Shown here one piece after another: positions 6,734-7,837 of a stretch of DNA of 15,395 nucleotides (the stretch's first letter is position 1; each line of letters opens with the position of its first letter). A program made the position numbers and the translations under genes. The notes under the pieces were generated by a model. It did not search any database and was not told the origin of the DNA. It saw only the letters and a program-made list of their open reading frames with translations. The stretch comes from Candidatus Heimdallarchaeota archaeon (GTDB lineage Archaea > Asgardarchaeota > Heimdallarchaeia > JABLTI01). The DNA lies in the NCBI GenBank assembly GCA_030614005.1, contig JAUWKS010000071.1, forward strand, positions 1 to 15,395, read 5' to 3'.

Positions 6734-7837
6734 ATGAATATTCTATCTCTTACTTACAGTTCGATTTCTTTAGCAATAATGCTCATTAGTATACTAACGA
6801 TTATTGTGAAACAGTGGAGTTTGAAATCAAGTGCGGTATATTATTTTCTAGGATTGGAAGTTCTTATTGCTTTTTGGATTATTGCGGGTATTTTACAAAT
6901 CATCTTTAGCAATCTCGATGACTCTTTGGTATTAATTTTTGTTCAAATGGGTATAATTGCTAATGGTTTTGCGATGATTTGCAGCGTTCTTTTCGCTAGC
7001 TCTTTGAGTGGCTTAATTCCTATAAAGCAGGTTGCACTTTATGTCGTTTTTCTCCTTTTTGGCGGAGTTTTTGGCATCACTCTTTCCCCTGAAGCATTCA
7101 AAGTAGAATATGATAGTGCTTTAGATATTACAAAATCTACAACTAATATAGTCTGGATAATTTGTTTGGCTGGTGGAGTAGTTCTTGCTGGAACATTCTT
7201 CTTATGGCATCTTGTTCGTCAGAGATCAATTGTTAACCAGAAATATAAAAGGGGCATTAATTTTTTGATTGCCGGAGTTGTTGTTGCTTTCTACGCTAGT
7301 ATCTTAGTTTATGCCTTAAGATTTGCTTTTGTAAGCTTACAGAAAGTACTTCTCCACTCTGAATTAATAACTACTAGTGTCGGAACTGCTTTGATTCTCG
7401 CAGGTATGCTTATTGGAGGAAAAACAGCACTTTATGGTTCCTCACAAGTTATCTCGGTCAATATTTACAATGACATCGGTCTTAACCTTTACCAGGGATT
7501 CTTCGAAACACCTCATAAATTAAATGAACACCTTATCTCTGGCATTGCTACAGCTATTGCTACTTTTGCATCGGAGATAGTAGGCGAAGAAGTTTCTCCA
7601 AGGGAAATTGACTTGGGAGACTATTCACTTATTCTGGATAAACGAGGAAAATACTCTGGATTTATTGCTTGTAAGTATCCTACAAATCAAATTCATCATG
7701 GGTTGGATCTTATAATGGCTCACTATAAACCAGATATGGAGTACGATGAGATTTCAAAACTAATAGATAATTATCTACCTTATGGTCTCCCCGTGAAAGA
7801 TGCGAGTAACCCACAGATTGAACGAATTGTAGAATAA
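6734..7837 (+). CDS. Seven-TM membrane protein with C-terminal longin-like domain
   Basis: Seven hydrophobic helices in residues ~5-230, then VISVNIYNDIGLNLY...LISGIATAIATFASEI...EIDLGDYSLIL...SGFIAC...HHGLDLIMAHY, the typical Asgard longin-type pattern. Confidence 0.7.
   Translation: MNILSLTYSSISLAIMLISILTIIVKQWSLKSSAVYYFLGLEVLIAFWIIAGILQIIFSNLDDSLVLIFVQMGIIANGFAMICSVLFASSLSGLIPIKQVALYVVFLLFGGVFGITLSPEAFKVEYDSALDITKSTTNIVWIICLAGGVVLAGTFFLWHLVRQRSIVNQKYKRGINFLIAGVVVAFYASILVYALRFAFVSLQKVLLHSELITTSVGTALILAGMLIGGKTALYGSSQVISVNIYNDIGLNLYQGFFETPHKLNEHLISGIATAIATFASEIVGEEVSPREIDLGDYSLILDKRGKYSGFIACKYPTNQIHHGLDLIMAHYKPDMEYDEISKLIDNYLPYGLPVKDASNPQIERIVE

Follow-up and report, generated by a model that had tools for sequence, protein, structure and literature searches.

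We analysed a gene on contig JAUWKS010000071.1 of the Candidatus Heimdallarchaeota archaeon assembly GCA_030614005.1, a genome of 3.6 Mb in 126 contigs that is 90% complete. The contig is 15,395 nt long with a G+C content of ~31%, and the whole of it, forward strand positions 1 to 15,395, is the window to which all coordinates below refer. At 6734..7837 on the plus strand lies a 367-codon open reading frame (ORF) with an ATG start. It encodes a predicted bundle of seven transmembrane (7TM) helices followed by a cytoplasmic tail that is modelled with a longin-type fold, and we refer to it as the 7TM-longin gene.

This ORF is a real, constrained gene and not a chance reading frame, because full-length orthologues occur in many genomes and because the ratio of nonsynonymous to synonymous substitution rates (dN/dS), measured against an orthologue of 85% identity, is 0.14 overall at a dS of 0.60. 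By part, dN/dS is 0.145 for the transmembrane (TM) region and 0.138 for the tail. The N-terminal residues are kept in the alignment of its relatives, and the start codon is therefore right. About 28 nt 5′ of the ATG, direct reading of the plus strand finds an A/T-rich, TATA-box-like element (6701..6711), which suggests that the gene may have its own promoter and be transcribed into a leaderless or near-leaderless mRNA. Since the gene on its 5′ side is divergent and the next plus-strand ORF begins nearly 500 nt downstream, the 7TM-longin gene looks monocistronic. A search of sequencing runs found the window DNA in marine-sediment and cold-seep metagenomes, and no RNA run was among the runs listed as containing it.

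The seven-helix bundle

A 19-residue hydropathy scan of the protein finds seven hydrophobic segments. The predicted cytoplasmic loops carry nine Lys/Arg residues and the outer loops four, with most of the acidic residues on the outer loops, and the topology is therefore N-out/C-in. AlphaFold2, run on an alignment of 18 sequences, models the whole protein with a predicted local distance difference test score (pLDDT) of 80 and a predicted template modelling score of 0.69, and places the TM helices at residues 3-30, 33-57, 63-90, 96-116, 139-166, 169-198 (continued at 200-206) and 209-234. The bundle thus occupies aa 1-234 (6734..7435, plus strand), with helices arranged as in G protein-coupled receptors (GPCRs) and rhodopsins. 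Hydropathy, charge distribution and model together bear out the sequence-only reading, an earlier interpretation made from the DNA letters without database searches, which had described a 7TM protein with a cytoplasmic C-terminus. That reading had also pointed to a long loop between TM4 and TM5. The loop (aa 117-138, 7082..7147, plus strand) is the longest of the outer loops, yet at 22 residues it is only moderate in length. The model places a beta-hairpin inside this conserved loop (strands 123-127 and 132-136).

Conserved positions are found at both ends of the bundle. Close orthologues share an invariant Q55, S59, Y126 and L130 on the outer side, the last two within the TM4-TM5 loop, with N138 and H208 almost fixed as well; facing inward, Q27, L30 and K230 never vary and K26, W28 and S29 hardly do. 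Where the alignment extends to relatives of 20% identity, the nearly invariant positions still include three at outer ends of helices (I57, W141 and E210) and three where TM5 ends on the inner side (L160, Q163 and V167). These residues may form an outer pocket and an inner coupling surface.

In structural searches with VIA-align, the best match of the bundle is the class D GPCR Ste2 (Z 16.9, root-mean-square deviation (rmsd) 3.3, 216 residues aligned), followed by GABA-B, designed GPCR-like folds, GPR161 and mGlu1, with other GPCRs at Z 13-15. Microbial rhodopsins (Z 13-14) and the 7TM enzymes ACER3 and AdipoR2 (Z 13.2-13.5) also match, in a range of Z ~13-14 that helical bundles can reach by arrangement alone, and Foldseek E-values for the 7TM part are only ~2e-3. 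With eukaryotic GPCRs (Ste2 at the Z given above, class C 7TM domains at Z 14-15) the protein shares an N-out/C-in bundle with similar packing, and many class A receptors likewise have a beta-hairpin in the TM4-TM5 loop. Archaea are not known to have heterotrimeric G proteins.

Sequence searches do not place the bundle in a described family. Neither the whole protein nor either half matches a Pfam or NCBIfam family; residues 1-235 give no match to 7TMR-DISM_7TM or HisKA_7TM at E <= 10; and direct reading finds none of the motifs DRY, NPxxY and CWxP, while a Pfam scan yields no GPCR family. Of the two affinities raised by the sequence-only reading, the HisKA_7TM-like one finds no sequence match, and for the GPCR-like one Ste2 scores highest, with rhodopsins at Z 13-14. 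The GPCR likeness of the bundle is one of fold level only, and we do not assign it to any known 7TM class. A rhodopsin identity was rejected because the TM7 lysine is absent: the interior of TM7 (residues 209-229) holds no lysine, as the sequence-only reading had noted of a retinal-binding one, and K230 sits at the cytoplasmic end of the helix and is not kept in distant homologues. A PAQR/ceramidase-like identity was likewise rejected, despite the scores of ACER3 and AdipoR2, because of its opposite orientation; these two belong to the PAQR type, with the N-terminus inside.

The longin-type tail and its predicted pairing

In the AlphaFold2 model the tail domain begins three residues past TM7 and runs beta-beta-alpha-beta-beta-beta-alpha-alpha (strands at 238-246, 251-256, 291-293, 298-304 and 307-314; helices at 265-283, 318-330 and 337-347), the same order of elements that had been read from the sequence for the region right after TM7. 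The folded part, aa 238-347 (7445..7774, plus strand), spans ~110 aa, or 136 aa with the linker and the tail end, and when the tail is modelled alone on a 24-row alignment it shows identical secondary-structure elements at pLDDT 83.8. Its most conserved stretch is aa 267-299 (7532..7630, plus strand), comprising the central helix alpha1 and the edge strand beta3, where G284 is invariant and A274, F278 and E291 are nearly so. Directly after the last helix stands a conserved L-P-Y-G-x-P motif (aa 348-353, 7775..7792, plus strand), whose P353 is nearly invariant in the diverse alignment.

The top 17 structural matches of the tail are all solved longins (Z 9.7-11.1, rmsd 2.4-3.8, 102-115 residues), and the superposition spans the whole domain including both C-terminal helices (model range 7..120). 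These matches include Fuzzy (7q3d_C, Z 11.1, rmsd 2.7, 106 aligned), AP-3 mu (9c5c_M, Z 11.0), VAMP7 (4afi_B, Z 11.0), TRAPP (3cue_C, Z 10.8) and sedlin (2j3w_A, Z 10.6); mu and sigma subunits of AP-3/AP-2, Bet5/Trs23, Sec22 and COPI zeta and delta are also found among the longin matches, and the SRX domain 5ck3_A appears at Z 8.3. With Z values within ~1 unit of each other, the fold matches do not discriminate between longin subfamilies. Roadblock proteins, solved Asgard ones included, rank below the longins (Z 7.5-9.7) and align only to residue ~105. Foldseek agrees, with Mon1-Ccz1 at 7.5e-5, AP-1 sigma3 at 8.5e-5 and 20 matches at E <= 1e-3 that are nearly all longins. A GAF/PAS-like, ligand-binding tail was rejected, such folds being absent from the 50 best matches.

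The two branches of the superfamily have been told apart by their termini, longins lacking the N-terminal helix that packs on the sheet and having an extra C-terminal helix (PMC10933270). In the model, no N-terminal helix lies on the sheet of the tail, where beta1 (from residue 238) comes directly after TM7, and two C-terminal helices are present instead. The domain can also be joined to Roadblock by profile comparison: using hhalign, a profile of 39 domain copies from the source genome aligned with the Robl_LC7 proteins of that genome at 93.4% (E 2.5e-7, 71 columns), although the narrower 24-row orthologue profile reached 33% only. The true Robl_LC7 genes of the source genome, with 13 matches, are located elsewhere. 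From its modelled fold and this profile link, we place the tail on the longin side of the Roadblock/longin superfamily, in keeping with the longin-like domain that the sequence-only reading had proposed.

Two copies of the tail are predicted to pair. The interaction score (ipSAE; median of three runs) is 0.71, whereas the best of three controls gave 0.01; in calibration, 20 of 30 proteins with a solved paired structure attained the mark, as did 1 of 23 whose solved structure is a single chain. At least 95% of contacts are common to the runs, with a partner pLDDT of at least 76. The predicted interface is built from domain residues 36-68, which correspond to the conserved stretch aa 267-299, with the remaining contacts at domain residues 9-10, 29-33, 81 and 83 (aa 240-241, 260-264, 312 and 314), and it is of the canonical longin/roadblock type formed by a helix and an edge strand. 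The model supports homodimerisation of the tail without showing it, and the score may partly reflect recall, because similar dimers have already been solved.

Compared with eukaryotic longins (Mon1-Ccz1 LD1, Fuzzy/CPLANE, TRAPP, AP, VAMP7/Sec22), the tail shares the order of elements, superposition over the whole domain and the predicted mode of pairing; it differs from those families in sitting at the C-terminal end of a 7TM bundle and in having no Pfam longin match. With Roadblock/LC7/MglB proteins and Ragulator-Rag, including Asgard structures (PDB 9jue, 7f8m, 7yh1), it shares the core fold and the predicted dimer geometry, but where Roadblock proteins carry an N-terminal helix on the sheet the tail has none, and ends in its two C-terminal helices.

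Spread of the family and of the tail domain

A word-indexed search of 5.8 billion proteins returned 19 relatives of the same length, and 1.84 billion cluster representatives, searched exhaustively with HMMER, gave 27; without exception these show the two-part layout or a fragment of it. The named relatives come from Heimdall-group or unclassified Asgard metagenome-assembled genomes (MAGs), apart from one filed as Bathyarchaeia. Across 300 Asgard genomes sampled over the phylum, the family profile matched in 275 at E <= 1e-5; most of the matches listed reach no further than the tail domain, many of them within proteins of ~680-740 aa. These results agree with the Asgard origin that had been suggested from the sequence. 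Strong full-length orthologues (E < 1e-100) were found in the GTDB family of the source genome and in one sister family of the same class, and weaker full-length matches with both the 7TM part and the tail in at least nine more, so that the full-length architecture is listed for at least 11 of the 30 GTDB families. In the ESM Atlas, the nearest clusters by features and by shape are unnamed Promethearchaeota clusters of 59-134 members.

Several individual relatives deserve mention. The Bathyarchaeia entry is a 137-kb contig (DATKZI010000004.1, filed as Candidatus Bathyarchaeia) with a full-length orthologue of 59% identity; because every other named relative belongs to the Heimdallarchaeota, this bin may carry the wrong label. 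In one Heimdall MAG, two paralogues with 63% and 53% identity to the 7TM-longin protein lie 1.6 kb from each other on one strand (5844-6956 and 8601-9827 of that locus). In another MAG the copy (5872-7026 of locus L043) is split over three frames, the mark of a pseudogene or of assembly errors. A further relative (P0019) joins the 7TM part to a DJ-1/PfpI-like tail, and because a DJ-1/PfpI gene lies just downstream at a related locus, a frameshift or the merging of two genes in annotation seems likely.

We then consider the tail domain by itself. An iterated hidden Markov model search of all ORFs of the source genome converged on 38 proteins that carry it, to which architectures were assigned by hydropathy and Pfam. 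Four of these, including the 7TM-longin protein, combine the domain with a 7TM bundle; in three the domain comes first and is followed by 2-4 TM helices; and about eight are single-pass proteins of 900-1860 aa with a signal or anchor, a large ectodomain, one TM helix and then the domain, with FG-GAP/Ig-like ectodomains in the two that were checked. About ten are TPR-repeat proteins of ~690-770 aa with the domain at the end (four checked by Pfam), several are soluble proteins that start with the domain, one of them with winged-helix motifs, six are stand-alone domains of 125-175 aa, and one is an Arf-family GTPase followed by the domain. Receptor-like membrane proteins and scaffolds thus make repeated use of the longin-like domain as a cytoplasmic module, and it is not peculiar to the 7TM-longin gene. 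An iterated profile of the 7TM part, in turn, finds only one paralogue in the source genome (contig C81).

Some of these carriers are unusual in their own right. The 7TM paralogue at 15368-17161 of contig C34 (598 aa) continues after the longin-like domain into a C-terminal S-adenosylmethionine-dependent methyltransferase. Two giant single-pass proteins (contig C68, 20086-25611; contig C10, 11647-14484) have an integrin-like layout, in which a single TM helix separates an ectodomain of FG-GAP, beta-propeller and Ig-like type from the cytoplasmic longin-like domain. On contig C9 (3899-5612) a Robl_LC7 gene lies directly upstream of the gene for the 425-aa protein that begins with the longin-like domain and has winged-helix motifs, and the two may be a Roadblock/longin pair tied to transcription.

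Candidate roles of the fusion

Taken together, we favour the view, to which we give about an even chance, that the protein is a dimeric, receptor-shaped sensor or anchor in the membrane, whose longin platform is offered to a soluble partner. The 7TM bundle (N out, C in) runs directly into the cytoplasmic Roadblock/longin-superfamily domain, and two tails would pair through the central helix and the edge strand to form a two-fold platform just under the membrane. In eukaryotes, longin/roadblock dimers serve as docking platforms for small GTPases; the paired tails may dock a soluble partner as such dimers do elsewhere, with the bundle taking the input and the longin pair serving for output or docking. 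We read the bundle as the input because its conserved polar residues cluster at the outer ends and in the TM4-TM5 hairpin, and it may accordingly be a part that senses something. The partner would be a small GTPase or another protein bearing a Roadblock/longin domain.

A number of results weigh against this view. At the level of the fold, the tail has no match at E <= 10 among the Pfam longin models PF13774, PF04099, PF01217 and PF19036, neither the tail nor 24 homologues match the Roadblock/LC7 model PF03259, and searching the PDB sequences with profiles built from the alignments of the whole protein and of the tail returned noise only. In Pfam searches with the 24 homologues, single insignificant matches appeared (Sybindin 0.058, Fuz_longin_1 0.15); a search of the source genome with PF13774 gave no match, which is uninformative as control genomes were equally silent. 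For the bundle, Z values of 13-17 stand little above the helical-bundle background, in which microbial rhodopsins also fall. As to the partner, family scans and a nearest-GTPase search found no GTPase gene in the window, which is the whole contig of the gene, and across the orthologous loci no neighbour is conserved and no GTPase lies beside the orthologues. Over the source genome, with its 47 small-GTPase ORFs, 4 of the 38 domain genes have a GTPase gene no more than 3 kb away, against 3.9 +/- 1.7 in random sets. Finally, the fusions to TPR repeats, winged-helix motifs and a methyltransferase may speak for a general pairing module with no GTPase tie.

The sequence-only reading had gone further and envisaged a membrane sensor whose signal reaches small GTPases by way of the longin module, a proto-GPCR or guanine nucleotide exchange factor-like architecture; with no GTPase in the window, no conserved neighbour and no excess of nearby GTPases, this claim was not borne out. 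What points directly to a GTPase is no more than the Arf-type GTPase of the source genome that is fused to the longin-like domain, a layout that recalls Rag GTPases with their C-terminal roadblock domain, together with the roles that longin dimers are known to play in eukaryotes. For the 7TM-longin gene itself, the evidence against a GTPase link outweighs that in favour. In a cultured Asgard archaeon, GTPase and Roadblock/longin genes seldom share an operon (PMC10933270), and the missing linkage is for this reason weak evidence. We consider a small GTPase a tentative and rather doubtful candidate for the partner of the tail.

The other genes of the window are a mixed set. At 9371-12211 on the minus strand lies a gene with a G+C content of 0.41-0.43, against ~0.31 for the rest of the window; its product, of 946 aa, contains 14 LVIVD repeats as well as TSP3 repeats of bacterial type. 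It was rejected as an operon partner because related LVIVD genes lie near some orthologues (loci L040, L043 and L044) and not others. The plus-strand gene at 8324-9193 (289 aa) matches the NCBIfam family 'choice-of-anchor S' over its full length (E 1.6e-46) and has no Pfam match. Two pairs on the minus strand are toxin-antitoxin-like (2037-2674 and 4418-5217), the first made up of a PIN-domain gene and a small ORF that overlaps it on the upstream side, the second of a DUF3368 (PIN-like) gene and a UPF0175/ribbon-helix-helix gene that overlap each other. Directly upstream of the 7TM-longin gene lies a third gene of this kind (DUF3368; 6065-6577, minus strand), which has no visible partner.

A broader form of the favoured reading, which we think possible but improbable, takes the domain as the pairing plug of a signalling network in which receptors and soluble carriers form mixed longin-longin dimers and an exchange of partners passes the signal. 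The 7TM proteins and the giant FG-GAP receptors would then pair with the domain carriers that have TPR repeats, winged-helix motifs or an Arf/Rag-like GTPase, and the arrangement could be an archaeal forerunner of Rag-Ragulator-type docking. We keep this idea in view because of the 38 copies in such architectures and the confident, canonical dimer interface.

Among the alternatives, we rate as just as improbable a constitutive anchor, in which the seven helices sense nothing and hold the longin platform in place at the membrane for lipid-free Asgard GTPases or Roadblock/longin complexes to dock. There are analogies in LAMTOR1, which anchors Ragulator, and in the membrane protein SR-beta, which serves the longin-like SRX domain of SR-alpha, and the SRX domain is itself among the fold matches of the tail. 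The short spacing after TM7 would keep the tail close to the membrane, the source genome tethers the domain by differing membrane parts (7TM, 2-4 TM and single-pass), and the 7TM parts diverge fast, the profile of this one reaching only the single paralogue noted above. A plain anchor, however, needs neither seven helices nor the conserved outer residues I57, Y126, W141 and E210, and the TM part is constrained like the tail by dN/dS.

Somewhat less probable still is a self-contained channel, transporter or membrane enzyme whose tail only dimerises or regulates it, with no signalling partner. The strong homodimer predicted for the tail alone, the lack of a genomic GTPase link, the paralogue with a methyltransferase after its longin-like domain and the structural scores of the 7TM enzymes ACER3 and AdipoR2 are all consistent with such a protein. 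However, these two enzymes are PAQR proteins of the opposite orientation, no transporter or enzyme family is found by sequence, and the spread of the domain over receptor-like single-pass, TPR and GTPase proteins fits a protein-protein module better. Very unlikely, in our judgement, is a trafficking role in which the tail would recruit coat-, adaptor- or tether-like Asgard proteins to the membrane, in the manner of the longin domains of eukaryotic SNAREs and AP sigma/mu subunits, and would not switch a GTPase, since, although the best fold matches include sigma and mu of AP-2/AP-3, COPI zeta/delta and the longins of VAMP7 and Sec22, they do not separate longin subfamilies, the protein has neither a SNARE motif nor a coiled coil, and its order of domains is the reverse of that in longin SNAREs, which have an N-terminal longin domain and a single C-terminal TM helix.

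The favoured reading of a dimeric membrane sensor or anchor has relatives among prokaryotic receptors. The 7TMR-DISM and HisKA_7TM types, prokaryotic 7TM receptors with a fused cytoplasmic output, were reportedly described by Anantharaman and Aravind in 2003, and the logic is shared, a seven-helix input followed by a cytoplasmic module in one polypeptide. Their outputs, however, are kinases, cyclases or phosphatases, whereas here the output has a longin fold and the bundle has no sequence match to those 7TM families. For a membrane sensor that works with a Roadblock-superfamily protein and a small GTPase, the actinobacterial conservon is a prokaryotic precedent, with the membrane kinase CvnA, the MglB-type roadblock protein CvnB, CvnC and the Ras-like GTPase CvnD (PMC13343842). 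The parts of the conservon are separate genes in one operon and its sensor is a histidine kinase, whereas in the 7TM-longin protein the membrane part and the Roadblock/longin module are fused and no GTPase gene is linked.

Within the Asgard archaea, 130 orthologous groups of the Roadblock/LC7 superfamily have been reported in a preprint by Liu et al. (2020), with many lineage-specific fusions that include NPRL2-like longins with two-component domains and longin-GTPase fusions (10.1101/2020.10.19.343400). The 7TM-longin gene fits this pattern, and the main text of that preprint does not mention a 7TM-longin fusion. The supplement of Eme et al. lists longin families without architectures, a 2026 preprint has unspecified '7TM proteins' among its reported Asgard families of eukaryotic signature proteins, and a full-text literature search found no paper describing the fusion. 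The longin-fold tail on a 7TM bundle is akin both to the prokaryotic 7TM receptors with fused outputs and to the Asgard expansion of Roadblock/longin proteins.

Small GTPases and Roadblock/longin proteins number in the dozens in Asgard archaea. The GTPases generally do not have eukaryotic-type lipid anchors, and the GTPase genes are rarely in operons with those of their regulators (PMC10933270). The 7TM-longin family is a candidate for the link that would bring these proteins to the membrane or to a signal from outside. Even if it should bind no GTPase, the census marks the longin-like domain as a common cytoplasmic module of Asgard receptors.

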